From: Nanobdellota archaeon | Lineage (GTDB): Archaea > Nanobdellota > Nanobdellia > Pacearchaeales > GW2011-AR1 | Reading direction: 5' to 3' | Length of the DNA stretch: 64,000 nt | Assembly (NCBI GenBank): GCA_030611805.1 | Contig: JAUWPB010000001.1 | Span: forward strand, 24,765 to 88,764 | Shown: one piece after another, positions 5,725 to 30,891 of the stretch | Numbering within the stretch: position 1 is the stretch's first letter | Layout: each line of letters begins with the position of its first letter | Translations under genes and position numbers: made by a program | Notes under the pieces: generated by a model | Database searches by the model: none | What the model was told of the DNA's origin: nothing | The model's input: the letters and a program-made list of their open reading frames with translations, nothing else

Positions 5725-7743
5725 TTATTGTTTAGAAACTCTCATAGCTACAACTATTATAATTAGTATTAAAAGTATGTTCAATGCTCCGATTGCCCAC
5801 AAGTACCAGTTTCCTTCAGAGATTACATTGCCTGTGATGCCTGCGAATCCATCTGATGCTATTGATTCTATTGAAACTGAAACAGGTTGTTTAATTTCTT
5901 CTCCGCCAGCTGGTGTTACTAAAATATTAAATGATTTTTCTCCTGAAGCTTCCTTGTCTACATTAAATATGATTAAAACTTCTTTTGATTCTCCTGCACC
6001 CAGGATAAATATGCTTGGTTCAATTGTCGGTGAAGATGCCCAGTCTGAATATTCTTCTGCGTTTACTTCATAAGTAACTAACGAACTTCCTGTGTTTGTG
6101 ACTGTTGTTGTAATTACTAATTCTTCTCCTGCTTGTCCGCCAGATTCTAAACTTGCAGAAACCATAGTAGTTTGTTCAACTAAACAACCGCCTTCTACTT
6201 TAAGATAAACATGAAAAATTGCTTCGTCATCTTCTGAATTCTCATAGACATCATTAGATAAAAGATCCTCGTCATCATACACAGTAAACTTAACGGCATA
6301 CCATGCTTCATCCATGTCTTCGGGAATATTAAAAGTAAATTCTATTTTTTCGTTATCCAAAGCACTTATATCTTCTACATCTATTATCTTATTAATTTTT
6401 AAATCACTATTATAAACCAAAATATAAAGTTCGTCTTCATCTATTTTATCATCACCAATATTCCAAGCATCAAATGAGATTGTTACTTCTGCTCCACATT
6501 GAACAATTTCCGGGAATTTAAAGTCATCCAATATAATAAAGTTTTCATCTGTTCTTATTTCTATTTCTTTTGAATCTGAAGCACATGTTTTTTCTCCGTC
6601 AGTTCCTTCTGGTGCCTCATTATCATCTATTTTACCTGTAGCTTTAATATATAATTCATAATTATTATTATCTTTGTTTAAGTCATCTGGGTCTATTTTG
6701 AAATTAATTAAAATTGTTTGCTCATCATCTTCTCCTCTTTTTTCAAGGTCAAAATCATTAGTATCAATAGACATGTCGTCTTCGTCCATTACACAAGTTC
6801 CTTCTTTTACATCAAGCAAGCATATCTGAATTTCAATATCCTCAATTTCCCAAATTCCTTCATTTTCAACTTCTATTTCAATTTCAATTTCATCAAGAGG
6901 ATACCAGTATTCTTCATCGTCTCCAAATCCTTCTTTAACATTAATATCTTTTATTTCAATATCTAACTCCCCAGGGTTTTGACAATCTTCACAAAATGGA
7001 TTTTCAAAACTAACTATTCCTGTAGAAGAAGTGCCATCACTTGCAGTTGCTGTAATTGTAACTTGATTTTCTCCAACTTTTAAATCATCTAAATCAGTTG
7101 TCCTTGTAACTTCAACATCTTGTGTTGCTCCTGCAGCTAAAGTGAAAGGTCCAGAAGGATTAAAAGAAACATCAAAATCTCCTGATTGAGTTAATGTAAT
7201 ATCTGATAAAGGAGTATTCCCCTCATTTTTTATTGTAATAGTTGTTGAATTTTCCCATTCAGGAATTGTTGAGGGAGAGACTGAGAGTTCATATGAATCT
7301 AAAATTGAGACTGAGAAAGCAAGAGTTTCATTAGTTGCAATCGCAGTATCTCCTACATTAATATTTCCTGTAATCGTCCCTGTTTGATATTTATCAAAAG
7401 AAATTGTAGCAGTAATAACTTCTGTTGTTGGTTCTTCTGGAGCTCCTAAAGCAATATAAAAATCATCAAAAGAGAAAGTTAATCCTGTGTGTGAAGAAGT
7501 AAAATTAAATAAATCCCAATATAAATCTCCTGCTATACCAACATTAGTTAAATCAAAAACAATATCAAACGAACCTGCATCGTGAGTAGTATTTTCAGGA
7601 ATAGTATATTCTGTGATGGGGTCTAAATCAACAGCACTAACTGCATTTATAAGAATTACGAAAATTAAAACACCTAAACCGAACAAACTGAATATTTTGG
7701 ATTTCATTTGTGTCATTTCGGAGTTGCGATGGTTTATAAGCAT
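5725..7743 (-). CDS. Large acidic secreted cell-surface protein with C-terminal TM helix + basic tail (possible sortase-type anchoring signal)
   Basis: N-terminal signal peptide (SKIFSLFGLGVLIFVILINAVSAVD), very D/E-rich repeats, C-terminus WYLWAIGALNILLILIIIVVAMRVSKQ. Confidence 0.5.
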   Translation of the reverse strand: MLINHRNSEMTQMKSKIFSLFGLGVLIFVILINAVSAVDLDPITEYTIPENTTHDAGSFDIVFDLTNVGIAGDLYWDLFNFTSSHTGLTFSFDDFYIALGAPEEPTTEVITATISFDKYQTGTITGNINVGDTAIATNETLAFSVSILDSYELSVSPSTIPEWENSTTITIKNEGNTPLSDITLTQSGDFDVSFNPSGPFTLAAGATQDVEVTRTTDLDDLKVGENQVTITATASDGTSSTGIVSFENPFCEDCQNPGELDIEIKDINVKEGFGDDEEYWYPLDEIEIEIEVENEGIWEIEDIEIQICLLDVKEGTCVMDEDDMSIDTNDFDLEKRGEDDEQTILINFKIDPDDLNKDNNNYELYIKATGKIDDNEAPEGTDGEKTCASDSKEIEIRTDENFIILDDFKFPEIVQCGAEVTISFDAWNIGDDKIDEDELYILVYNSDLKINKIIDVEDISALDNEKIEFTFNIPEDMDEAWYAVKFTVYDDEDLLSNDVYENSEDDEAIFHVYLKVEGGCLVEQTTMVSASLESGGQAGEELVITTTVTNTGSSLVTYEVNAEEYSDWASSPTIEPSIFILGAGESKEVLIIFNVDKEASGEKSFNILVTPAGGEEIKQPVSVSIESIASDGFAGITGNVISEGNWYLWAIGALNILLILIIIVVAMRVSKQ

Positions 7744-16165: not shown

Positions 16166-16334
16166 GCCAGTTCTAAAAATGTTTAATTTATAAATCTTTC
16201 TATTCTGTCACCTTTCAAAAATAGTTACATTACTTAACAAACCCAACTCTCTTCAATAACTCATTCCCAATTATCCTCCCTAAAACTCCTTTTCTTGCTT
16301 TTTCAATACCTTAGCACCTGTTATATTGGTTAAA

Positions 16335-19226: not shown

Positions 19227-19526
19227 ATGCCTTTATTAAAAAAAATTTCATTTGATTCCCGAGGAAGGTTTATAGGTATTGTAGAAAAAGGAGAAACTAT
19301 TCTCTTGGGAGTGCCAACTACTCATTTAAGGTCGTTCTATTCAGATGCAATAAAAACAAAGGAGATGAATAAAAATCGGGAAAAAGATATTAGAAATGCC
19401 CAGAAAAATTTGGTTTCTTCTGCAAGGCAAGACCAAAGATTATATTACCAAATCCCAAAAAAACCAACAGAAACTAATATGTATTATATAAGATTTGCGT
19501 ATAACACTTTCCAAGAAAGAAAATAA
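19227..19526 (+). CDS. Hypothetical protein
   Basis: ORF track only. Confidence 0.3.
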   Translation: MPLLKKISFDSRGRFIGIVEKGETILLGVPTTHLRSFYSDAIKTKEMNKNREKDIRNAQKNLVSSARQDQRLYYQIPKKPTETNMYYIRFAYNTFQERK

Positions 19527-19577
19527 CTTTATTTTCTAATTAAAAACTTTTATAAATGTATTTTTTTTGAATAAGTT

Positions 19578-19964
19578 ATGGTTTTAAAAATAATCAATGC
19601 AACAGAGGCAAGAGTTGGTACAAATATCCTTCTTGATGGTAAGCCCTATACTATTAAAAAAATTGACATAAGCAAAACAGGTAAGCACGGGCATGCAAAG
19701 TGCAGGATAGAGGCTGTAGGAATAATCAATAAACAAAAAAAAGTTTTTGTTATTCCAGGACATGACCGGCTTGAAATCCCTTTGATAGATAAAAAAAAGG
19801 GTCAGGTTCTTTCAGTTGAGGAAAAGGTTAGTGTCATGGATTTGGAAAGTTTTGAAACAATAGAAATTGATTGCCCGGAAGAAATAAAATCAGAACTTGA
19901 AGAAAATTCTAATGTTGAATACTGGGATATTGAAGGTGTGAAAATAATCAAGAGGAAACTATAA
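19578..19964 (+). CDS. eif5a: Translation initiation factor 5A (aIF5A)
   Basis: Hypusination loop SKTGKHGHAKCRIEAVGI. Confidence 0.85.
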   Translation: MVLKIINATEARVGTNILLDGKPYTIKKIDISKTGKHGHAKCRIEAVGIINKQKKVFVIPGHDRLEIPLIDKKKGQVLSVEEKVSVMDLESFETIEIDCPEEIKSELEENSNVEYWDIEGVKIIKRKL

Positions 19965-20362
19965 TCCTAAAGTATAACAAAGTTTTAAAAAAAAGCTTTT
20001 AGTATATTAATGCAGGAGTTGTGAAAGAGAGGTTTATCATATAATTCTGAATAAAAATGATATCGGAGAAGGCAAAATTGAAAAAGTTTTATCTAATCTT
20101 CTAAGAAAGGTAATGCGAGAAGGTGCAAAAATTCCAGTTCATTTAAAAAAATTTTTACCAGAAAGCCCGTGTATAGAAAGGTATATTGTAGTAACAAATG
20201 GGGATGGAAATGTTAAATGTAAAGTAGTAAACAAAACATATTTAATAGGGGGCATCGTTTAGTAGAAATAAGTTCTCAAAAATATTCTAATCTGGAGAAG
20301 GATTTGCAAACACAAGGGCTTTGTTAAATAAGTCCTAATTTAAGCCTACTTTTTTAACAGAA

Positions 20363-20926
20363 TTATCTTATGATTTCTTCTTCTCTGAAAATATGGTCTA
20401 AAATATTATACATTAAATGAAAAGAATTTATAATTAGGACAATATTTCTTGAAGAATTCAATGTTTTATTCCCATGAACAAGATTGCTTCTCACCCTATA
20501 AAGAACTTCAATAATTTCTAATAAATTGCTTTTATCATTAATCCTTATGGAAGGTCTTGTTTTTGGTGCAGGAGTCATATCTATTAATGGTTGATTTTCC
20601 AACTCTTTAAATAAAGCTTCTATCCAAACATTACAAGAATCTTTGAATGTTAAAAATAAATCTTGGTAAGTTGAACAAAAAAATTCTCTTTGTTTCCATA
20701 TTCTTGATTCAGTTGGACTCATCAAACCTATCATGGCTTCAAATGGAACCATAACTGAAACAAGACCTACTGCTTTATCATATGCTTCTGGATTAGGATT
20801 TTTCCCTAAACCTTTTTTTAAATTCTGTTTCGCAGACGCTTCAGACATAAATAATTTTATAAGTTCTATCATGTCATTCTCCAAATAAATATTATTTCTT
20901 ATAATTGTCATCTTCCTCCACACCAC
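20363..20926 (-). CDS. HEPN-like protein (Rx4-6H motif), last gene of RM-linked operon
   Basis: YRVRSNLVHG near C-terminus fits R-x4-6-H HEPN signature; overlaps upstream nuclease gene by 19 nt. Confidence 0.35.
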   Translation of the reverse strand: MVWRKMTIIRNNIYLENDMIELIKLFMSEASAKQNLKKGLGKNPNPEAYDKAVGLVSVMVPFEAMIGLMSPTESRIWKQREFFCSTYQDLFLTFKDSCNVWIEALFKELENQPLIDMTPAPKTRPSIRINDKSNLLEIIEVLYRVRSNLVHGNKTLNSSRNIVLIINSFHLMYNILDHIFREEEIIR

Positions 20927-21555
20927 TCACAACTATCTTTAGGACAATCAGAGTTTAATAATTTAATTGCTTTTTTCCATACTTTCTCTGCACTTTCCAC
21001 ATCAACTTTCATCTTAACTAACTCAGTATCAAAGATAACTTCTCCAGTTGCCATAACTTCTTTGGGAATGTAAAACAATAGGAAAAAATAATCTTCTGTT
21101 TTGTATCCGTTCTTTCTTAAAAGAAAATTGTAAATATTTTGTTGTTGTCTGTAATGTTCTGCTGTGTCCTCTTTTAGTGGATAGCCTCGTGTCTTGTAGT
21201 CCAATACAATCAACTTTTTTCCTTTTACAAGGATATTATCAACTGCTCCGTGTAGTTCGTTTCCATCTTTATCTGTAAAAGAAACACCTTTGAAATTGCT
21301 TTGCCAGATTTTTAATTTTTCTTTATCTGTAAATAATTTCATTCCTTTGCATTCCCCATTCTCGCAAATTTCAGGAGGCAATTTTCCTTGTTCCATAAAT
21401 TTATTAAAATGAACTTTTAGAATTTTATCCATTCCATTTGGAAGGCTTGGGAATATTCCTGCTGGTCGTTTCCAAACTTTATGCTGTGCTAACCAAAAAC
21501 AACGAGGACATTCTTTCATTAGATTTAATGTTGAGGGCGATAGTTTGAATGTCAT
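20908..21555 (-). CDS. Cas4/RecB-like PD-(D/E)xK nuclease with Fe-S cysteine cluster
   Basis: N-terminal CPRC, catalytic GAVDNILV...IVLDYKTRG (D...D-x-K), QQQNIYNF (QxxxY), C-terminal CPKDSCEWC. Confidence 0.5.
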   Translation of the reverse strand: MTFKLSPSTLNLMKECPRCFWLAQHKVWKRPAGIFPSLPNGMDKILKVHFNKFMEQGKLPPEICENGECKGMKLFTDKEKLKIWQSNFKGVSFTDKDGNELHGAVDNILVKGKKLIVLDYKTRGYPLKEDTAEHYRQQQNIYNFLLRKNGYKTEDYFFLLFYIPKEVMATGEVIFDTELVKMKVDVESAEKVWKKAIKLLNSDCPKDSCEWCGGR

Positions 21556-21556
21556 T

Positions 21557-22801
21557 TTAATTGAAAATTATTTCTTTTTGCAATAAATTTTCTATTTTCA
21601 TTGAAGAATTATTTAAGTTTTGATTATACTCTTCTAACTTTTCATAATCTTTGACAATTTCTTTAATGTTGTTATTCAATTTTATTATAGAGATTTTAAT
21701 TATATCTAAAATTTTTGTTAATGGAAGAACAGACAAATCTGAACTTGAAACATATTTTAAAAATATTGGTTCTAAATAATACTTTAAAAACATCAAATAA
21801 ATTTTTTCATCTTCTTCTGAATTTATATTCAGTTCTTTTTTTATTTCATCCTTTAATAATAGAAGCATAGCATTAGTATTTGTTGCATAATTTCCTATTG
21901 GAAGATATTCTAATTTTCCAGCGTCCCCCCTCGTGATTATATGTAACCCCTGCTTCATTTTTACCGCATGTATTTTTTCTTCAAAAGGAACTATTCCATG
22001 AATATTTCTAAATGAACCTGATAAAACATTAATTTTTTCTTTTGAATTTACTAATCCTTGGCTTCTCTTATATATTCCCTCTTCACTTAATGCATCATTT
22101 CTACTGACATATTTTAAAAAATATGAAAGCATCTTTTCAGATTCAAATTGGTTATCAAACTCAAAAGATTTCTCCTTTATTTTTTTTATAACTTCAATTT
22201 TTTTCCTTAAGTTATTTTTTAGATGATATACTCTTTCATATAATTCTAATTGTTTTTTCTGTATTTTTATCTCTGGAACCTCTAAATCTACTTCATTAAT
22301 GATTTTTAACGGAATGGTGGATAACCCTTCTCGATTCACTAAATTACTAAATAATGGATTAAATCTCATATAAAACCATTTTAAATCTAAACCATCAAAA
22401 TTAGAATATTTTAATTTTATTTTAGAATCTTCTTGTTTAAAGAATGTAAAAATTGAGGTAGTTAAGCTAAACAAGGGGTATTTTTCAGAACTTCTATAAG
22501 ATAATTTTCCCGCATTACCACATCTAATCATAGTTATACATCCTTCTTTATTTATGAAATATCTTATTTTATTCTTCTCAATATAATGATTTTTTTCTTT
22601 AATATCTTCTGGAGTTAGAAAATTTGGGACAAAACCAAATAATCCTTCTTTAGAATCTGACCCAGATAGGACAGAAATTTTCTCGAATTTTTCTAAATAT
22701 GGCAAAAATTTGTATGTTTCTCTTTCTGTTAATTCAGGCATATTTTTAGTATTGGCTCCTCGAAAAGGGGTAAACATATCTTTAAATTTGATAATTTCCA
22801 T
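21557..22801 (-). CDS. Restriction-modification specificity (S) subunit with two target-recognition domains (BcgI-B-like / HsdS-like)
   Basis: Duplicated TRD-associated motifs ITMIRCGNAGKLSY and IITRGDAGKLEYLP with intervening coiled-coil spacers. Confidence 0.6.
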   Translation of the reverse strand: MEIIKFKDMFTPFRGANTKNMPELTERETYKFLPYLEKFEKISVLSGSDSKEGLFGFVPNFLTPEDIKEKNHYIEKNKIRYFINKEGCITMIRCGNAGKLSYRSSEKYPLFSLTTSIFTFFKQEDSKIKLKYSNFDGLDLKWFYMRFNPLFSNLVNREGLSTIPLKIINEVDLEVPEIKIQKKQLELYERVYHLKNNLRKKIEVIKKIKEKSFEFDNQFESEKMLSYFLKYVSRNDALSEEGIYKRSQGLVNSKEKINVLSGSFRNIHGIVPFEEKIHAVKMKQGLHIITRGDAGKLEYLPIGNYATNTNAMLLLLKDEIKKELNINSEEDEKIYLMFLKYYLEPIFLKYVSSSDLSVLPLTKILDIIKISIIKLNNNIKEIVKDYEKLEEYNQNLNNSSMKIENLLQKEIIFN

Positions 22802-22802
22802 T

Positions 22803-24884
22803 TTAAGACCCTATTATTTTTTTTAATTCTTCTTCTAATTCTTTTTTGGTGATATATCTTGGTTCGTATGGTCTTAACCAATACTCTGGTAACAAGTTGA
22901 AATAATTTTCTTTAAATAAATTCTTAATTGGAAGAAACATTACTTTCTTCATCTTTACTTCTTCCCCCTTTTCCGTAATCCATGTTACAAATTTTCCATC
23001 ATCATCGTGACCTAACCATCCTCCTTCTAATATTCCTTCTTTCTCTTCACCTTTTGTATTAACCCAACCAGAAATTTCATCATGCAACCAACCATTCCTA
23101 TTATTTCTTAATTTAGTTGGAAATCTTTTATCGGAATTAGCTAACCCATCATTGTCAATAATGTAAATCCAAATCGGATTTTTTTGTTTCTTTGTTTCAT
23201 TTTCACTTCTTTTAGTAAAAAATAAAGCATAAGTTTTTTCTTTAGTATATGGTGCAAAAGCAAATTTTGGTAGAGAAACGATTGCATTAATTTCACATCT
23301 TCCTAAAAGCCATTTTCTAAGAACTCCAAAAGTTGGATTTTCTAAAACACCATCTGGAAGAATTATACATGCTTTACCCCCAATTTTTAATAAATCTAAT
23401 ACCTTACAAAGAAATGCTATTTCTGTTCTATTTGAACTAATTGCATCTGTATTTGCTTTTATTGTTCCATTACCATATGGGGGATTAGTAATAATGTAAT
23501 CGTATTTTTCATTCTTCCATTTTTGTTTTGGTCTCAAGGTATTATCAACAAACATATTAGTATGTCCATCTCCCACAAGAAACATATTCAATTTAGTTCT
23601 TTGGATGTTCTCCTCTCTGACATCTACACCATAAAAACATTCCTTAGAAAGAAATTTTATTGCATCCTTATCTAAAGTTTTACTTACTTCATAATTATTT
23701 TTTAATACTTTAAAACTCTCAGTCAAGAATCCACCTGTTCCACAAGCCAAGTCAAGAATTTTAAATCTCCTATCTTTATTATAAACGATTTCCCCTTTTA
23801 ATAATAGTTTAGAAAATATGTGTGTGTAATGTCTCCTTGTAAAATACTCTCCAAAATCTTTTTTCTCTTTACTTGAGGCGAACATTTCATAAACTGCACC
23901 AAATAAATCAAAACCAGTTCCATGTAAGGGACCCATAGAAGTTATAACATCATATATTTGTTTAACATCAACTTTATCAATTAAAGGATTTTTTCCTGCT
24001 TCTCCAGAGATGTTAACCTTAACAGTTTCCATTAAATCTTTAAATTCGGTGAAGTTAGTTTCTCTCTCAAGTCTTCCAATATACTCAGACAAATTTGCTA
24101 CAATCTTACTTTCATTTTCATCGGAACACTCTGTCCAATAAATCTTAGTTCTATCTTTTTTTGTTTCTATTTGTTCTTTCTCTTCAAAAAATTTGAGTGA
24201 AACAAACCCAATTGTAAAATCAATCTTTTCTTGATTATTCTTGAAATTAATATTCCTATAAATGGTTGCTAATTCCCATAATTTCTTATTAAAAATGGCT
24301 TCAGAAATAGCCGATAGTGAATCAACATTGGTTCTTATGTTATCAAGAAATTTATCTTTATCTAATCTATTTTTAATTAAACGAAATATATCTATTGTTT
24401 GAAATTCTCTTATTGGATTATTATTTAACTTTATTTCTTTCCCTGTTGTAGAATTATAGAAGATGGTTGTTTTACAATTTGTAACAATAAAATAAGGTAG
24501 TTTTAATTTTTTAGATTTTCTCTCTCCTTGGTTTATTGCATCTTTCCATTCCGTATCTCCTACTGAACAGTTATCCTTTACTTCAGAATAAGCAACCAAA
24601 TTTTCTACGAATTGTTTTTGATTATTAGTTTCTTGGTCAAATTCAAATTCTGAAATTAATAGGTCTGGTCTCTTAAAGTCTGTGTACTCTGAAAAGGTTG
24701 TGTCATTGACTATTTGTCTTAAAGGAATACTTAACTGCCCAACTAAAATATCATGGATTAATCTTGTTACTGTTAAGGCTTCTCTCCTTGTCTTCTTTAC
24801 CATATTATAATTAGAATCATTAAGGGTATTTAAATTGCGTGGTTTCATATTTTTACTTTTAGGAGGTAACAAAAATCCTTTCAT
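22803..24884 (-). CDS. Type IIB/IIG restriction-modification enzyme (N-terminal PD-ExK endonuclease fused to gamma-class N6-adenine methyltransferase)
   Basis: PDLLI...SEVKD nuclease motif; motif I ILDLACGTGGFL; motif IV ITNPPYGNG. Confidence 0.7.
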   Translation of the reverse strand: MKGFLLPPKSKNMKPRNLNTLNDSNYNMVKKTRREALTVTRLIHDILVGQLSIPLRQIVNDTTFSEYTDFKRPDLLISEFEFDQETNNQKQFVENLVAYSEVKDNCSVGDTEWKDAINQGERKSKKLKLPYFIVTNCKTTIFYNSTTGKEIKLNNNPIREFQTIDIFRLIKNRLDKDKFLDNIRTNVDSLSAISEAIFNKKLWELATIYRNINFKNNQEKIDFTIGFVSLKFFEEKEQIETKKDRTKIYWTECSDENESKIVANLSEYIGRLERETNFTEFKDLMETVKVNISGEAGKNPLIDKVDVKQIYDVITSMGPLHGTGFDLFGAVYEMFASSKEKKDFGEYFTRRHYTHIFSKLLLKGEIVYNKDRRFKILDLACGTGGFLTESFKVLKNNYEVSKTLDKDAIKFLSKECFYGVDVREENIQRTKLNMFLVGDGHTNMFVDNTLRPKQKWKNEKYDYIITNPPYGNGTIKANTDAISSNRTEIAFLCKVLDLLKIGGKACIILPDGVLENPTFGVLRKWLLGRCEINAIVSLPKFAFAPYTKEKTYALFFTKRSENETKKQKNPIWIYIIDNDGLANSDKRFPTKLRNNRNGWLHDEISGWVNTKGEEKEGILEGGWLGHDDDGKFVTWITEKGEEVKMKKVMFLPIKNLFKENYFNLLPEYWLRPYEPRYITKKELEEELKKIIGS

Positions 24885-26128
24885 TCTTCCACTTCCTTTT
24901 CTATAATAAACTCTCCTCTAATACCCAACTCATTCACTTCTTGAATCACAACACAAATATTATGGCAGAGAACTTTCAAAAGTAATTCATTGATTTGTGC
25001 TTGTTTAATTTTGCTACGAAGATTATCTTTAAATTTAGTTTTAATCATATGAAAAACAGTTTCTACATTACTTCTTTTATGATAATATTTTTTAAAATCT
25101 TCATTCTTATACATAAAATAATAATACATTTTTTTCCAAATTGGTGAACCTCCTGCTTTACCAGTTACATTTTTCTTGAATGGAATGTAGGGAACAGCAC
25201 CTACATTGCTGATAAGCTCTAAGTTCTTTTTTGAACTATAAGCTTTGTCACAACAAACATCACCCATCTTAAATTGCTTAGCTGTTTCATTGACAAGTTT
25301 AGTTAGTTGAGGACTATCATTTTCGTGACCATCTGTAATTTCTGCACTTGTAATAATGTTTGTTTTATTTCCACAAATAATATGGGCTTTCATCCATAAT
25401 CTGTATTTATTTTTTTTACCCCATTTATAATCAAAATATCTTGCAAATCTACAAGTTGAAAAACCAGAGCTATCTGCAGAGAAAGAAGATTCAACAGAAC
25501 TTAGAGGAGAAGAACTAAGTTTAATCAATTCTTTCAAAATTTTTGTTAGTTCTTTTTTTTGCATAAAATTGCTAATGGTGGGATAAGTGCAAACATTCTC
25601 AACTAAACCCATTTCTTTAGCAATTTTCATATCTGACATAAATCTTCTTAATGAAAAAGTAGAATAAACTTTTAATGCAGATGCAAAAACCATTTCTGAA
25701 AAGGGTAATGTTGGTCTACCAAATTTATATTCTGGTTGTTCAATATTTTTACATAATTCTTTTAAAAGTTTTAAGAAAAATAGCTTTTCATTTGTTTGGG
25801 CATTATCATAAGCTTTCCATTTCTGAGAATATCCTATTCTTACTCTCTTTGTTTGAGATATATTTCCCTCTATGTCTATCGTTCTTTGAATAAATAATTC
25901 TACAGCTATTATGTGTTTGCATCTTCCGTGTCGTATCCTACAATCCAGACAATTACATTGTGGTTTATGTCCATTAAAATAAACCTCATAAAAACCTTTA
26001 CCAGATTGAGAAGGAACTCTCCATTTATCTTCAAGCTTTTTTATTTTTAAGTCTTTGGATATTAATTCTCCTCGTTTGTATCGTGTCAATTTCTTCCAGT
26101 TTGTTTTCATAGTATATTCAGGTACCAC
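24881..26128 (-). CDS. SWIM zinc-finger + DDE transposase (IS4/IS5/ISH3-type, DDE_Tnp_1) translationally coupled to the RM gene
   Basis: N-terminal CNCLDCRIRHGRCKH (CxCx_nCxH); DDE region with DVCCDKAYSS and Y-x2-R-x3-E-x6-K signature YHKRSNVETVFHMIK; stop TGA overlaps ATG of RM gene (ATGA). Confidence 0.7.
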   Translation of the reverse strand: MVPEYTMKTNWKKLTRYKRGELISKDLKIKKLEDKWRVPSQSGKGFYEVYFNGHKPQCNCLDCRIRHGRCKHIIAVELFIQRTIDIEGNISQTKRVRIGYSQKWKAYDNAQTNEKLFFLKLLKELCKNIEQPEYKFGRPTLPFSEMVFASALKVYSTFSLRRFMSDMKIAKEMGLVENVCTYPTISNFMQKKELTKILKELIKLSSSPLSSVESSFSADSSGFSTCRFARYFDYKWGKKNKYRLWMKAHIICGNKTNIITSAEITDGHENDSPQLTKLVNETAKQFKMGDVCCDKAYSSKKNLELISNVGAVPYIPFKKNVTGKAGGSPIWKKMYYYFMYKNEDFKKYYHKRSNVETVFHMIKTKFKDNLRSKIKQAQINELLLKVLCHNICVVIQEVNELGIRGEFIIEKEVEE

Positions 26129-26227
26129 CTGTTTATATATCTTTCGGTACCTTAAAGAGAATAGAAAAGCTTATAAATTAACCAGAAGTTATCTAAATAG
26201 ATAAGATATAGATAACATTCAGTTAAA

Positions 26228-26413
26228 ATGGAAAAAAAAGAAAATATCAATGTGAAGCTCACAATCGAACAAAAAGAAATATTAACAAGCTTAATTGGAC
26301 CTATGGGTAGTAGTGAGCCAGAGGTTTTAAGAAGTATTTTTTTAGCATGGTTATCTGAACAAAGGATACTTTCAGAAATAATTAAAAAAAAGATAATTAA
26401 CAAAAATGGATGA
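26228..26413 (+). CDS. Ribbon-helix-helix (CopG-like) small regulator
   Basis: 61 aa; beta-strand NINVKLTIEQ followed by two short helices; first gene of 4-gene overlapping operon. Confidence 0.4.
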   Translation: MEKKENINVKLTIEQKEILTSLIGPMGSSEPEVLRSIFLAWLSEQRILSEIIKKKIINKNG

Positions 26414-26960
26414 AGCTGAACTTGTAGAAAGAAATATGATTTTGTTACTTGGAGCAAAAGAAAGAGCTATCCCTTCTGACCTCCATCTACAAAAGGAGAT
26501 TTTCCTCCTTTCAAATTTTAAAGAAGGAATTTCAGATATTTTCAATTTTCAAAAACATTATCTTGGTCCTTATTCTCAAGTTTTAGATGAATCTCTAAAA
26601 AATCCTGCATATTTTCCAAAAGCATTTGATTTTGATTACAACAAAATTTCATTATCTAAAGATGGTAAAAAAGAATTTTCAAATATGATTAAAAAATTTT
26701 CAAAAGAAAAAAACTTTCAAATTCTTTTTTATTCGCTTAAACTTTTAAGAGATTTATATGATAAACTTACTAAAGAGGAATTAATGTTTCTTATCTATGA
26801 AACATATCCAACATATACAGAATTTTCACAAGTATCTAATAAATTGACTAAAAATGAATTTACACGAAGCAAATTATTAAATAGTATCCTTTCTAAAGGA
26901 TTAATTACCCAAGAAAGATACGAGGAATTAAAAAATGCAAAAAGAAAAATTAATACCTGA
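26406..26960 (+). CDS. Panacea-domain (DUF4065, SocA/GepA-like) antitoxin-type protein
   Basis: LHLQKEIFLLSNF...FNFQKHYLGPYSQVLDESL resembles DUF4065 core (kLqKllYf...f.aw.yGPv...ly). Confidence 0.5.
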   Translation: MDEAELVERNMILLLGAKERAIPSDLHLQKEIFLLSNFKEGISDIFNFQKHYLGPYSQVLDESLKNPAYFPKAFDFDYNKISLSKDGKKEFSNMIKKFSKEKNFQILFYSLKLLRDLYDKLTKEELMFLIYETYPTYTEFSQVSNKLTKNEFTRSKLLNSILSKGLITQERYEELKNAKRKINT

Positions 26961-27459
26961 CACCTCTTTTTTTTCATTCTTCTTGTATAACACTCAAGAA
27001 CAAGAATCTTTAAAGAAAATTTTAAAAGAGTTTTATGTAGAAGTATGCCCCAAGGTTCATAAAGAAATTAATAATTATGTTCCTGAAGATATTGAAAAAG
27101 AATTACATTTTTTCAACGATGAATTAGACTTTTCTGGATTGCTGAAACCACTTTTTTCAGAAGAACAAATAGAAAAAGGAGAACATGGGGTGATTGTATT
27201 AGCTTATTTTAATTATAATCTTGGAATTAAAGAATTTATAATCGTCCTCGATGACAAAGGAGCAAGAAGTTTTATGAAAAATAATTTTTCATATCTTGAA
27301 ATTCTTACTAAATGGACTGCAGAATTTATAAAATATTGTTATCCCAAAATATTTAATAAAGAACAAATATTAGATTTGTTAGATAAAATGGATAAATCAA
27401 CCTTTGCTATTGATAAGGATTCACTAAATAAAATCATTCAGGAAATCCAAAATGAGTGA
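26935..27459 (+). CDS. PIN-domain nuclease (candidate toxin)
   Basis: Acidic quartet placement: LIPDTSFF (D), EHGVIVLAY (E), IIVLDDKGARSF (D-D). Confidence 0.5.
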   Translation: MQKEKLIPDTSFFSFFLYNTQEQESLKKILKEFYVEVCPKVHKEINNYVPEDIEKELHFFNDELDFSGLLKPLFSEEQIEKGEHGVIVLAYFNYNLGIKEFIIVLDDKGARSFMKNNFSYLEILTKWTAEFIKYCYPKIFNKEQILDLLDKMDKSTFAIDKDSLNKIIQEIQNE

Positions 27460-28621
27460 TATTAATATTATTGAAACCATCCAAGATAAAAACTCTTTTT
27501 TTAATATAAAAAGATTCTCCCTTAAAAATCTTGGAAAAGATTTTTCTATCAAAACAATGGATATAAATAATATAACTAAAAAAATTTTTGAGGACAGTAA
27601 GATAATAAAAAATAAAAATATTATATTTGAGAAGAGTAAAATAATAAAAGATTTTAAAAATATAAAAGGGGTTATGGATGAAAGTAATGACTCTAAAATA
27701 AATGATTTTTTTGGTAGGAAAGCTTGGTTAGATGATAAATTTACATTATTCCATGCAACATTGAAATTTAATCCTTATAATTATATAAAAAAAGTTGATG
27801 AAATAAGTGGTTTCTTAAATTATTATTATTCTCATTCTAAATATCTCGTTTTGATTCCTAATGTTTTAAAACATTTCACTCCATATGATGAAGAAGGGAG
27901 GGCATCAAAGACAAAGACAGAAGTTATTTCTATAAATCATTACATAAAGTTAATAGATGAATTATATGAATTTTTTGAACAGATGAATAATAAACCCATC
28001 TTTGTCCCACTCTCACTAAAATTATCAATGAATGAATTAACAGAATTAGTGAGACACTATCTAAAAAAAGAAAGATTTTATTTTTGGATAGATTTTGAAT
28101 CTGCACCTGCTAATTTATCTAATGCTACTCTTGGGGGTAAGATTGGTCAGATTAATCGTTTATTAAGAAATTCTAAACAATTTGATAAAATGATTCTCCT
28201 CGCCACAAATATCAAGAGAGAAATAATCTCCAATTCCAAAGATAATAAAAGCCCTGCCTCTGATATTTTAACCACATTATGTGGTGCTAACATTGTTGGT
28301 GTTGATAGAGACCCTGCAAGGATGTTTAAAATAAAGGAAGGAGAAAAACAAAAGATTATAGAACATAAATCAAGACTTTTTAATGAGCAAACATATTATT
28401 ATAATATAAGGAAAGAACAGAAACCAAACAAGCCTCTTAATGTTACTATAAATTCAGTTAAACTATCAACTGAATTTGATAATCAAAAAAAGAATTTCTT
28501 AAAAGAATCTGGAATTTCAGATTACTTAAAAACAAAAGATATGCTAAAAAATTATTTGGGGGGAAAGATATTAAGGTCTCTACAACCAAGTATAAAAGAG
28601 TTCCAAAAAAAACTTTTCTAA
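27452..28621 (+). CDS. Hypothetical 389-aa protein, last gene of RHH-Panacea-PIN operon
   Basis: ORF track; start overlaps PIN gene stop; no recognisable motif by eye. Confidence 0.4.
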   Translation: MSDINIIETIQDKNSFFNIKRFSLKNLGKDFSIKTMDINNITKKIFEDSKIIKNKNIIFEKSKIIKDFKNIKGVMDESNDSKINDFFGRKAWLDDKFTLFHATLKFNPYNYIKKVDEISGFLNYYYSHSKYLVLIPNVLKHFTPYDEEGRASKTKTEVISINHYIKLIDELYEFFEQMNNKPIFVPLSLKLSMNELTELVRHYLKKERFYFWIDFESAPANLSNATLGGKIGQINRLLRNSKQFDKMILLATNIKREIISNSKDNKSPASDILTTLCGANIVGVDRDPARMFKIKEGEKQKIIEHKSRLFNEQTYYYNIRKEQKPNKPLNVTINSVKLSTEFDNQKKNFLKESGISDYLKTKDMLKNYLGGKILRSLQPSIKEFQKKLF

Positions 28622-28622
28622 A

Positions 28623-28781
28623 TTATCCTTTTGTCAAATAAATTTTATCCTTCTCTGCTTCAGCTTTAAGTTGCTTACCTTCTAATTTTGATTTCTCCAC
28701 AGCTTCCTTAGGCAAAGTCACAATATATTTGTAATACTTAGTATCCTTCACCTTTTTTGACAATACCTTAATAATCTTCAT
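28623..28781 (-). CDS. AbrB/MazE/SpoVT-like swapped-hairpin DNA-binding protein (52 aa)
   Basis: Hand-translated MKIIKVLSKKVKDTKYYKYIVTLPKEAVEKSKLEGKQLKAEAEKDKIYLTKG; pattern ...ItLPKe..ekl.l.eG..l..e.e.dkiyL.k; convergent with 389-aa gene. Confidence 0.4.
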   Translation of the reverse strand: MKIIKVLSKKVKDTKYYKYIVTLPKEAVEKSKLEGKQLKAEAEKDKIYLTKG

Positions 28782-29213
28782 AAAATAATAAGGTACCGAT
28801 TATTTATAAAGCTTATGGTACCTGAAGGAAGAAATATAAGTAATGAAAAACATATGTTAAAATGAGAAAATCAATATCAAAAAGTTTTGGAAGAGCTAAG
28901 TTTAAGGTAGGAATAAGTAAAACATTAAGCCCATATGCTATGGTAAGACTTAAGATTTCTAAAAATACTTCTGCTTCTGCCGATACAGGATTTAAAGGAA
29001 ATAGAATAAGAGTTAGTGCATGGAAAGATAATCTCAAGGCTACATTAGAACATAATAAAACTACAAAACAGACTAAAATAAAAGTTGATAATAAAAAAGC
29101 ACACTATTAGACTTTTTTAACAAGAGCTACTTATTTAACAAAGCCAAACACAAGAAAAACCTTAAAAACCTTCTTTTTCTTGGATTAATTAATAAGGAAT
29201 ATTAAAAAATAAA

Positions 29214-29375
29214 ATGGCTAAAATTCCAGAAGCGCAAAACAGATTGTTTAAGAATATTTTTGTCTGCAAAAAATGCCAGAGCAAGATTAGAGCAGACCCT
29301 CAAAAGATTCTCAAAGGCAAAGTGAAATGCAGGAAATGTAAGAAAAAAGCATTTAGACCTTTGAAAAAGAAATAG
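29214..29375 (+). CDS. rpl40e: Ribosomal protein L40e
   Basis: Hand-translated MAKIPEAQNRLFKNIFVCKKCQSKIRADPQKILKGKVKCRKCKKKAFRPLKKK (FPEA..R.F...C..C...C.KC...RP pattern); missed by track. Confidence 0.7.
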   Translation: MAKIPEAQNRLFKNIFVCKKCQSKIRADPQKILKGKVKCRKCKKKAFRPLKKK

Positions 29376-29409
29376 TTTTTTAAACAATCCTTTTCAATAA
29401 TTAATAGAA

Positions 29410-30891
29410 GTGATTAAAATGAATTTAAGTTTTTTTACCCCCTATGTAATTTTTGACCTGGCTCTTTTAATTATATTGCTTGTGTTATTAATTTTGTTTC
29501 TTAAGAGAAATAAATCTAATTTAAAACAAGAAGGAATTTTCTATTTGTATAAAACCAGCTGGGGCATAAAACTTATTAATATAATTGGTAATAAATACAA
29601 AAGAACTCTGAAATTTTTGAGTTATGTTTCTATTGTTTTAGGTTATTTTTTAATGGCAGGAATTTTATATTTAATCGGGAATACTTTTTGGAGTTATCTG
29701 ACAAGACCGGAAATGGTGGAATTGATTAGGGCGCCGCCTTTAGCCCCGCTGATTCCTTATTTTCCTGCAATATTTGGGTTGAGTGATTTTTTCCCTCCAC
29801 TATATGCTGTTTATTTTATTGTAGCTATTTTAATTGTTGCAACTGTCCATGAATTTTCACATGGAATTTTTGCCAAAAGATATGGGGTAAAAATAAAATC
29901 AACTGGTTTTGCTTTTTTAAAATATTTCCCAGTTATTTTGGGAGCATTTGTGGAACAAGATGAAAAAGACATGACAAAAAGAAAAAAATTTGAGCAGATG
30001 TCAATTTTATCTGCAGGGGTTTTTGCAAATGTTTTGATTGGGATTATATTTTTTATCATTTTAATTGGGTATTTTAATTTTGCTTTTACAGCTTCGGGAT
30101 TTGTCCCAAATAGTTATGCTTATTCGCTTGTTGAAATTTCCACAATAACTTTTGTTAATGGTCTTGCTTTGGAAAAACCCTCTTATAATACTTTGATTGC
30201 ATCAGTAGAAAATTTAAAAGAAAATGAAACAGACTTCATTAAAATTAAAACTGATGAGAAAGAATATTTGGCCACAAAAGTTTTTTTAGGAGTTCAAAAT
30301 CAGAGTAAAAACTATATTGCTCTTTATGAAGATGCTCCTGCAATAAATGCAGGGTTAGAGGGATTTATAGTCGGGATAAACAATGTTAAAATAACAGATG
30401 TGGAAAGTTTAAGCAATGAGTTAAATAAATATTCTCCCGGAGAGAAAATTATTGTCAGAACAAGAGATGACGGGCATTTTGAAGAATATGGAATCATCTT
30501 GGGAGAAAATCCTTCTGATAAAAATTTGCCATATATTGGCATATCTTTTGTAAAAGAGCGAAATTTTATTTTAAAAGAAAGTGCTCATTTTTTCACATCA
30601 CTTAAATCTAAGAATTTATATTTTAAAGAGAATACTTATTATCAGGCAAAATTTGGATTTTCTGAATTTGGTTATTATTTGATTTGGTGGATTGTTTTAA
30701 TTAACATTTTAGTTGCTTTATTCAACATGTTGCCGTTGGGAATGCTGGACGGAGGAAGGTTTTTTTATCTGAGTATTTGGAAAATTACCGGCTCTGAAAA
30801 ATTTGCTAAAAAATCTTTTTCATTTTTGACTTATTTAATTTTATTTGGATTTGTAGCACTTATGGTTAAATGGGCTTTGAGCTTTTTTTAA
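29410..30891 (+). CDS. Site-2 protease (M50 family) with PDZ domain
   Basis: HEFSHG zinc motif in TM helix, LDGG motif near C-terminus, internal PDZ-like region. Confidence 0.7.
   Translation: MIKMNLSFFTPYVIFDLALLIILLVLLILFLKRNKSNLKQEGIFYLYKTSWGIKLINIIGNKYKRTLKFLSYVSIVLGYFLMAGILYLIGNTFWSYLTRPEMVELIRAPPLAPLIPYFPAIFGLSDFFPPLYAVYFIVAILIVATVHEFSHGIFAKRYGVKIKSTGFAFLKYFPVILGAFVEQDEKDMTKRKKFEQMSILSAGVFANVLIGIIFFIILIGYFNFAFTASGFVPNSYAYSLVEISTITFVNGLALEKPSYNTLIASVENLKENETDFIKIKTDEKEYLATKVFLGVQNQSKNYIALYEDAPAINAGLEGFIVGINNVKITDVESLSNELNKYSPGEKIIVRTRDDGHFEEYGIILGENPSDKNLPYIGISFVKERNFILKESAHFFTSLKSKNLYFKENTYYQAKFGFSEFGYYLIWWIVLINILVALFNMLPLGMLDGGRFFYLSIWKITGSEKFAKKSFSFLTYLILFGFVALMVKWALSFF

Follow-up and report, generated by a model that had tools for sequence, protein, structure and literature searches.

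How do the genes of a restriction–modification (RM) system come to be packed into a single operon with a transposase and two further genes in an archaeal genome? The question is raised by a 64,000-nucleotide stretch of a Nanobdellota archaeon (assembly GCA_030611805.1, contig JAUWPB010000001.1, positions 24,765 to 88,764), called the window below, in which five minus-strand genes stand end to end. A preliminary description of this DNA had read them as a composite or undescribed defence module, or as an RM system captured and mobilised by a domesticated transposase. DPANN genomes are tiny, and the gain and loss of defence genes in them are poorly understood. Our analysis makes it very probable that an IS5-family unit transposon of 8.8 kb, with ends of the IS903 type, was inserted recently between the aIF5A and L40e genes, and that the five genes are its transposase and right-hand cargo arm.

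Boundaries of the element and its relatives

The window is AT-rich (~29% GC), and archaeal markers are found near the locus: FtsZ, aIF5A at 19578–19964 and L40e at ~29215–29376. Between the latter two genes lies an inserted element of 8,829 bp (20317–29145) that encloses the operon. Its boundaries and the five genes are as follows, in window coordinates.

20308–20316, no strand: copy 1 of the target-site duplication, AAACACAAG; the same 9-mer lies directly outside both inverted repeats
20317–20333, plus strand: terminal inverted repeat of the cargo (right) end, GGCTTTGTTAAATAAGT; perfect reverse complement of 29129–29145
20363–20911, minus strand: HEPN-fold protein, 182 aa, with an Rx4H motif (R141-S-N-L-V-H146); from fold search and motif
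20908–21555, minus strand: Cas4-family PD-(D/E)xK nuclease, 215 aa; Pfam PDDEXK_1 2.6e-9, PADLOC Cas4 2e-7
21557–22801, minus strand: S subunit, 414 aa, two target-recognition domains; PADLOC Specificity_I 2e-4
22803–24884, minus strand: fused RM enzyme, 693 aa, N-terminal PD...EVK nuclease and gamma-class N6-adenine methyltransferase; N6_Mtase 8e-34
24881–26110, minus strand: SWIM-DDE transposase, 409 aa, IS5 family, IS903-like ends; Pfam DDE_Tnp_1 1.8e-24
29110–29145, plus strand: left-end inverted repeat ACTTATTTAACAAAGCC at 29129–29145 with a tandem subterminal repeat of the same motif
29146–29154, no strand: copy 2 of the target-site duplication, AAACACAAG, matching copy 1

The end motif was found exactly twice in the window, in inverted orientation at 20317–20333 and 29129–29145, and allowing three mismatches added no further match to the perfect 17-bp repeats. 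Since these repeats and a 9-bp duplication lie at 20317 and 29145, the operon is part of the 8,829-bp element. The proposal of a composite or undescribed defence module is thus not supported, and that of an RM system mobilised by a transposase came close to the truth, except for the word domesticated. The two ends are asymmetric, since the right end has a single copy of the end motif. The left end has a tandem second copy (GGCTTTGTTAAATAAGT-AGCTCTTGTTAAAAAAGTC) in the window (29110–29145) and also in two of the related loci, which are numbered with an L below (L002, 2729–2760; L008, 70–105), and the 36-nt left end is conserved in L008, L009, and L030. The DNA similarity between the window and L002 is limited to the transposase, Cas4, and HEPN genes and ends ~50 nt past the HEPN stop at ...ACAAAGCC. 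An Rfam scan of 19500–29600 gave no match.

Relatives of the transposase numbered 4,539 at E<=1e-5, and the best 120 of the 4,539 were 61–100% identical and ~410 aa in length. Fifty loci were taken from species-representative genomes and one from IMG/VR; they are mostly from Woese-, Pace-, and Nanoarchaeota (DPANN), with a few from bacterial assemblies such as Blastocatellia and Terriglobia. The sampled loci and L002 yielded 16 further independent elements at 16 different sites, each bounded by GGCTTTGT... ends like those of the window and by a perfect duplication of 9 bp. These elements are 3.7–11.4 kb long with perfect repeats of 11–18 bp, and most of them are from DPANN genomes and one from a viral contig (IMG/VR). 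No bare insertion sequence (IS) was found in the family; the smallest relatives, of 3.7–3.9 kb, still carry a C5 methyltransferase.

The preliminary description had assigned the first gene of the operon to the IS4/IS5-type DDE transposases with a Y-2-R-3-E-6-K signature and an N-terminal SWIM zinc finger, and both assignments were confirmed. The signature is present beside the DDE_Tnp_1 match, and D213, D288, E350, Y343, R346, and K357 are intact, each being at least 97% conserved in an alignment of 123 relatives. The SWIM match in Pfam (1.6e-3) was just short of the cut-off, though the ligands C52/C54/C64/H66 are present and conserved at 97% or more in the same alignment. The same hallmarks recur in the 16 other insertions of the family, which argues that the transposase is, as judged from its sequence, a working recombinase of a cargo transposon and not a domesticated protein.

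A cargo census of the 17 complete elements (the window element and the 16 others) showed that 15 of them carry a DNA methyltransferase. Fusions of a nuclease with an N6_Mtase-type methyltransferase, some also fused with an S domain, were present in 11 of the 17 elements and C5 methyltransferases in two, while MT-A70, Dam with GmrSD, Type III Res and Mod, HerA with NurA, and glycosyltransferases were each found in one. Proteins of ~360–420 aa from several elements were considered as a shared accessory and rejected, as no relationship exists among them; they comprise PDDEXK nucleases, a C5 methyltransferase, and a protein of unknown kind. The gene after the transposase begins with a 4-nt overlap in at least nine loci.

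Comparison with the window proteins shows that cargo and transposase have discordant histories. In L002 the transposase is 66%, the Cas4-like nuclease 83%, the HEPN protein 69%, and the RM enzyme only 25% identical, and the S subunit shows no detectable similarity. The transposase and RM enzyme are 78% and 27% identical, respectively, in L009, 62% and 63% in L026, and 44–48% and 69% in L037, which is from a Blastocatellia bacterium. From these values, cassettes have evidently been exchanged between elements, and the last pair suggests exchange across domains. At L037 (contig DNNE01000076.1, 9911–16698), two transposase homologues (44–48%) are followed by the RM enzyme (69%) and an S subunit that is 38% identical; no GGCTTTGT-type ends were seen in this interval. 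The L002 transposon is inside a virus- or plasmid-like element, and it adjoins a D5-type primase/DUF5906 gene, an integrase, and dozens of small open reading frames (ORFs) (L002, 9869–19716). In L030, a second left-end-like sequence (GGCTTTGTTAAGTT...) starts right after the right-end duplication (16287–16320) and may represent a tandem or nested insertion. The flanks of the L009 element, at 7029 and 15383, share the 8-mer ATCAGCGT at shifted positions.

Right-arm cargo and alternative explanations

The ORF list contains the five minus-strand ORFs at the coordinates given in the preliminary description, and the tight coupling and the gene order described there are borne out by the junctions. 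Direct reading gave ATGA with a 4-nt overlap for transposase/RM and TAA-A-ATG with a 1-nt gap for both RM/S and S/Cas4. The HEPN gene starts at ATG 20911 (182 aa), the start shared by 10 of 10 homologues; therefore, the Cas4/HEPN junction is also ATGA, and its overlap is 4 nt instead of the 19 nt described earlier. The order recurs in L002, a locus of another organism recognised through its HEPN homologue, as transposase-RM-S-Cas4-(two small genes)-HEPN, with ATGA again at the transposase/RM overlap. The five domain assignments all stand, that of the S subunit through homologues and that of HEPN through fold and motif.

The RM enzyme had been described as BcgI-like, with a PD...EVK N-terminus and NPPY, and paired with a separate S subunit that has two target-recognition domains. 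Seventeen relatives share its PD...EVK, DLACGTGG, and NPPY motifs, and Pfam gave a weak HSDR_N_2 nuclease match (0.012). Matches in PDB sequences were HsdM proteins and the Type IIB enzyme RM.BsaXI (1.9e-16), in agreement with the earlier view. The S subunit itself had no Pfam match, and its assignment was established through homologues: Methylase_S is matched at 1.8e-19 by proteins 38–40% identical to it, and the profile of the family aligns in two stretches (5.8e-4) with 1YF2, a Type I S subunit of known structure. The system may be labelled Type IIB by virtue of its architecture.

The call of a Cas4/RecB-like nuclease is upheld by the PDDEXK_1 and PADLOC Cas4 matches listed above. Cysteines suited to the iron–sulfur cluster of a Cas4 nuclease were read from the sequence, an N-terminal CxxC (C16/C19) and a C-terminal Cx4Cx2C (C204/C209/C212). 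TIGR00372 scored 20 bits against a cut-off of 65, below the curated threshold for Cas4, and no cas genes were found in the element or the related loci examined. The family is very large and unusually conserved, with 3,245 matches, the best 120 of which are at least 79% identical. A different, larger nuclease of the PDDEXK_1/Cas4 type (392–402 aa) lies beside RM genes at L014 (5242–6420) and L027 (8484–9692).

For the 182-aa protein, no match was found in Pfam, PADLOC, NCBIfam, or PHROGs, nor in a PDB sequence-profile search. Its homologues gave faint matches (1.2e-3 to 0.14) to HEPN_Apea and RiboL-PSP-HEPN. The fold search revealed an all-helical HEPN fold, for which the structural model has moderate confidence, and the motif R141-x4-H146 is present. 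N143 and H146 are invariant among 92 homologues and R141 is conserved in at least 90% of them. The earlier call of a HEPN-like protein with Rx4-6H is thus supported by fold and motif.

One could suppose that the RM enzyme, the Cas4-like nuclease, and the HEPN protein cooperate as an integrated defence system for which the transposon is only the vehicle; for example, the nuclease might process restriction products, and the HEPN protein might serve as an abortive-infection back-up. The Cas4-like and HEPN proteins stay together, at 83% and 69% identity, beside the two unrelated RM cassettes of the window and L002. HEPN homologues are also found beside a Type III RM system and a DUF2779 (Cas4-like) nuclease (L005–7). 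In a Nanoarchaeia metagenome-assembled genome (L005, 3136–10546), the HEPN homologue, 61% identical, comes after two small ORFs and adjoins a Type III Mod/Res pair and the DUF2779 nuclease, directly upstream of the ribosomal L3-L4-L23 operon. Cas4 homologues likewise adjoin Type I and Type II RM systems; the sampled contexts include a Type I RM system and an integrase-bearing element with a C5 methyltransferase and the ThaI endonuclease. Solo-Cas4 genes of DPANN beside RM genes have already been noted by Hudaiberdiev et al. 2017 (PMC5704561). Against such cooperation, HEPN homologues also stand next to unrelated genes with no RM or Cas4 gene nearby (L064, L065, and L066), and in transposons of the window type they are confined to the window and L002 (2 of the 17 complete elements). 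Another sampled Cas4 homologue belongs to a PCNA/primase replication module with no adjacent RM system, and only three of the 11 N6_Mtase RM elements carry the window-type Cas4 (window, L002, and L043). We therefore regard Cas4 and HEPN as promiscuous mobile-element cargo, not obligate partners of RM, and the earlier view of them as RM accessories does not hold, as each occurs in many unrelated contexts. A functional link of the two proteins to the RM system may exist but is not required, and an integrated defence system is unlikely, though it deserves to be kept in mind. The presence of the gene in these elements explains why 'solo Cas4' genes of DPANN had been seen beside RM genes: at least some of these neighbours are carried jointly by a transposon.

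The Cas4-like nuclease, possibly with the HEPN protein, might instead serve the mobile element rather than the host, through end processing or gap repair after transposition, through recombination that swaps cargo, or through counter-defence. It is more conserved than the transposase between the window and L002 (83% versus 66%), it lies near the right end in four elements, and it is a member of the viral family phrog_31195 (2.4e-38), with homologues in virus- or plasmid-like replication modules. However, most elements of the family transpose without a Cas4-like gene, and any activity of the nuclease is putative. We consider a service of this kind improbable.

It is also conceivable that the SWIM-DDE protein is domesticated, has lost its transposon, and is now part of a defence operon centred on the RM system. 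Consistent with this, no inverted repeats flank the transposase gene itself; as the preliminary description had stated, the region around this gene alone (24500–26600) contains only chance-level AT-rich matches. Many loci retain the ATGA coupling with the RM gene, and most transposase homologues are on one contig each. However, the larger element is delimited by perfect repeats and a duplication of 9 bp, both here and at 16 other places; relatives occupy many different sites, and the catalytic residues are intact. In addition, L029, L059, and L019 have the transposase beside the right end with downstream cargo that is non-RM or absent. The observation that the transposase is not a compact autonomous IS beside RM genes was correct, but its domestication does not follow, since repeats had been considered only around 24860–26150 and the ends lie 3–5 kb farther out on each side, and we judge it highly implausible. 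The chance landing of an ordinary small IS just upstream of an existing RM operon, which has precedent in IS insertions beside RM genes (PMC3031569), can practically be dismissed, since no repeats or duplication lie around 24860–26150, the stop/start overlap with the next gene recurs in at least nine loci of differing cargo, and the true ends enclose the RM genes.

Promoters, left arm and a putative regulator

The remaining features of the transposon lie upstream of the transposase gene, toward the left end.

26121–26151, minus strand: promoter of the transposase operon, with a TATA box between two GGTACC operators (26121, 26146) 25 nt apart
26228–28621, plus strand: cargo operon of the left arm, whose four genes overlap (61, 184, 174, and 389 aa); from the ORF list and independent gene calls
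28623–28781, minus strand: AbrB/MazE-type small DNA-binding protein, 52 aa, putative regulator of the element; MazE_antitoxin 5.7e-4
28792–28822, no strand: second promoter with the same paired GGTACC operators (28792/28817) at 25-nt spacing, next to the AbrB gene

For the transposase (409 aa), the start is ATG 26110, as chosen by the gene callers; an upstream GTG at 26128 falls inside the promoter, in the stretch that separates the TATA box from the second GGTACC operator. The design of a TATA box with paired operators was also found upstream of the transposase in eight related loci. GGTACC occurs seven times in the window against 2.25 expected, and three isolated sites lie outside the element (2867, 10700, and 32770). 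The MazE_antitoxin score of the 52-aa ORF in Pfam falls short of the cut-off. When 29 full-length loci were read, homologues of this ORF were present in exactly 8 of the 8 loci with GGTACC-type promoters and in none of the 21 others. In other subfamilies, different palindromes flank the TATA box and different small proteins are encoded beside the promoter, namely ribbon-helix-helix proteins of 43–63 aa (RHH_1, 1.8e-3) or zinc-ribbon proteins of 50–72 aa. From these matched pairs we infer element-encoded repressors that co-evolve with their operators. GGTACC as a recognition or methylation site of the RM system that controls the promoter was considered and is unlikely, because the AbrB gene is common to all GGTACC-type elements, although their RM or methyltransferase cargo is unrelated.

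An 82-aa ORF (28862–29110, plus strand) was considered as the gene of the second GGTACC promoter and rejected, as related elements contain homologues of the 52-aa AbrB-like ORF on the opposite strand but none of this one. The 82-aa ORF, whose product is basic, lies in the interval from the AbrB promoter to the left inverted repeat. This subterminal region of ~300 nt is not conserved from element to element, so that the ORF probably does not represent a gene. As for the left-arm operon, the proteins of 184, 174, and 389 aa are conserved at 36–41% in the same position in L008 and L009, and PADLOC gave weak matches (PDC-M19A/DarG-like, 2e-6; PDC-S70, 1.8e-4). The 61-aa protein resembles a ribbon-helix-helix regulator by eye.

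These features can be combined into a model of how the transposon would operate. The SWIM N-terminal region of the transposase would bind the repeats, and the whole 8.8 kb would be moved as in the case of IS903. A nearly leaderless transcript from the TATA box (~26133–26140) would span the transposase, RM, S, Cas4, and HEPN genes, the downstream ones being translated by coupling at the ATGA and TAAaATG junctions. The 52-aa AbrB-like protein is predicted to bind the paired GGTACC sites at its own and the transposase promoters, which would set the expression of transposition and cargo alike. The BcgI/BsaXI-like enzyme would methylate host DNA and cut unmodified incoming DNA, which would benefit the host and also make loss of the element costly. 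The Cas4-like and HEPN genes would be additional mobile-element genes acquired separately.

Several points weigh against the cargo-transposon interpretation. Transposition itself, the operon transcript, the AbrB binding, and the RM activity are all predictions. The window contains only one copy of the element in its 64 kb, and no empty site for the insertion was found by an exact-match search of the metagenome contigs of one collection. In L009 the inverted repeats are clean, yet a clean duplication of 9 bp is missing. The best NCBIfam model, transpos_IS5_2, gave 116.7 bits against a cut-off of 140, and the catalytic core is only 21% identical to that of the IS903B transposase; because of these two values, the IS903 affiliation is based mainly on the ends and the length of the duplication.

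The locus provides a concrete vehicle for the movement of defence genes between DPANN archaea, with thousands of relatives of its transposase in metagenomes. The sampled elements nearly always carry methyltransferase or restriction cargo, which is swapped between elements, and members are also found in bacterial genomes and viral contigs. With its matched regulator–operator pairs, the family would offer a tractable model for the control that a transposon exerts over its own mobility as well as over cargo that is potentially lethal. A bolder claim, in which we place low confidence, would be that these elements form a large and so far undescribed family of cargo transposons in DPANN archaea, dedicated to moving DNA-modification and restriction genes, that the transposase and RM genes are deliberately co-expressed from one element-controlled promoter so that addiction and transposition are mechanistically linked, and that the ultra-conserved Cas4-like nuclease might act in transposition or cassette exchange. 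In the literature searched, we found no description of a SWIM-DDE, IS903-ended DPANN family that always bears cargo, of its bias toward methyltransferase and RM genes, of the translational coupling of transposase and RM genes, or of the regulator–operator pairs; ISfinder and REBASE were outside this search, and absence from it is no proof of novelty. To our knowledge, reports of archaeal unit transposons with a DDE transposase and several genes are rare.

Comparison with known systems

The solo-Cas4 genes of DPANN (PMC5704561) also encode a stand-alone Cas4-family nuclease, sometimes beside RM genes and with no CRISPR genes nearby. In that study the gene was not placed in a transposon, whereas here it is cargo of an IS903-like element and is often found in virus- or plasmid-like settings as well. 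The best structural matches of the HEPN protein were HEPN-MNT toxins (PDB 8XDJ, 7AE2, and 5YEP), which have Rx4H at the equivalent place. The window protein differs in that it has no MNT partner gene, has an extra N-terminal helical pair, and falls below the threshold of every Pfam HEPN family. The RM system resembles the Type IIB enzymes BcgI and BsaXI (PDB 8W0P), in which a nuclease and a gamma-class N6-adenine methyltransferase are combined in one polypeptide with a separate two-domain S subunit. However, the window enzyme aligns with the solved structures over the methyltransferase half only, and the comparison is one of architecture, not of the behaviour that defines Type IIB enzymes, which cut on either side of their recognition site and release a short fragment.

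Mobility of RM genes through IS elements is already known in principle (PMC3031569), and there too a DDE transposase moves RM genes. Those cases involve flanking IS copies, as composite or laboratory events, whereas the window element has one transposase and one pair of ends, without the two flanking IS copies of a composite transposon, and its RM gene is translationally coupled to the transposase. Tn3-family transposons with embedded toxin–antitoxin modules (PMC7157771) are similar in that an addiction or defence module lies inside a unit transposon and shares its regulation with the transposition genes. They differ in transposase family and mechanism; the window element has no resolvase, its cargo is RM instead of toxin–antitoxin, and it is archaeal. 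According to a review of archaeal integrated elements (PMC6563490), the IS-like transposons of archaea have one or two genes.

The element is also related to IS903. As a control, IS903B was taken from plasmid Rts1, where it has the repeat GGCTTTGTTGAATAAATC and a 9-bp duplication. If the following base of the window (C, 20334) is included, the window end GGCTTTGTTAAATAAGTC shares 16 of 18 positions with GGCTTTGTTGAATAAATC. Elements of the IS903 group have terminal repeats of ~18 bp that start with GGC and duplicate 9 bp of the target; the window element has perfect 17-bp repeats at both ends and AAACACAAG on both sides. The DDE transposases of both share Y-2-R-3-E-6-K. On the other hand, IS903 is 1,057 bp long with one gene, whereas the window element is 8,829 bp long with at least 10 cargo genes, far from the ~1–2 kb without passengers of a strict insertion sequence. 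Its transposase is ~100 aa longer with the N-terminal SWIM zinc finger and only 21% core identity, its left end has the tandem second copy of the end motif, and the hosts of its family are mostly DPANN archaea. On the basis of this comparison, the window element is best described as IS903-like at its ends and as a cargo-bearing unit transposon in its organisation.

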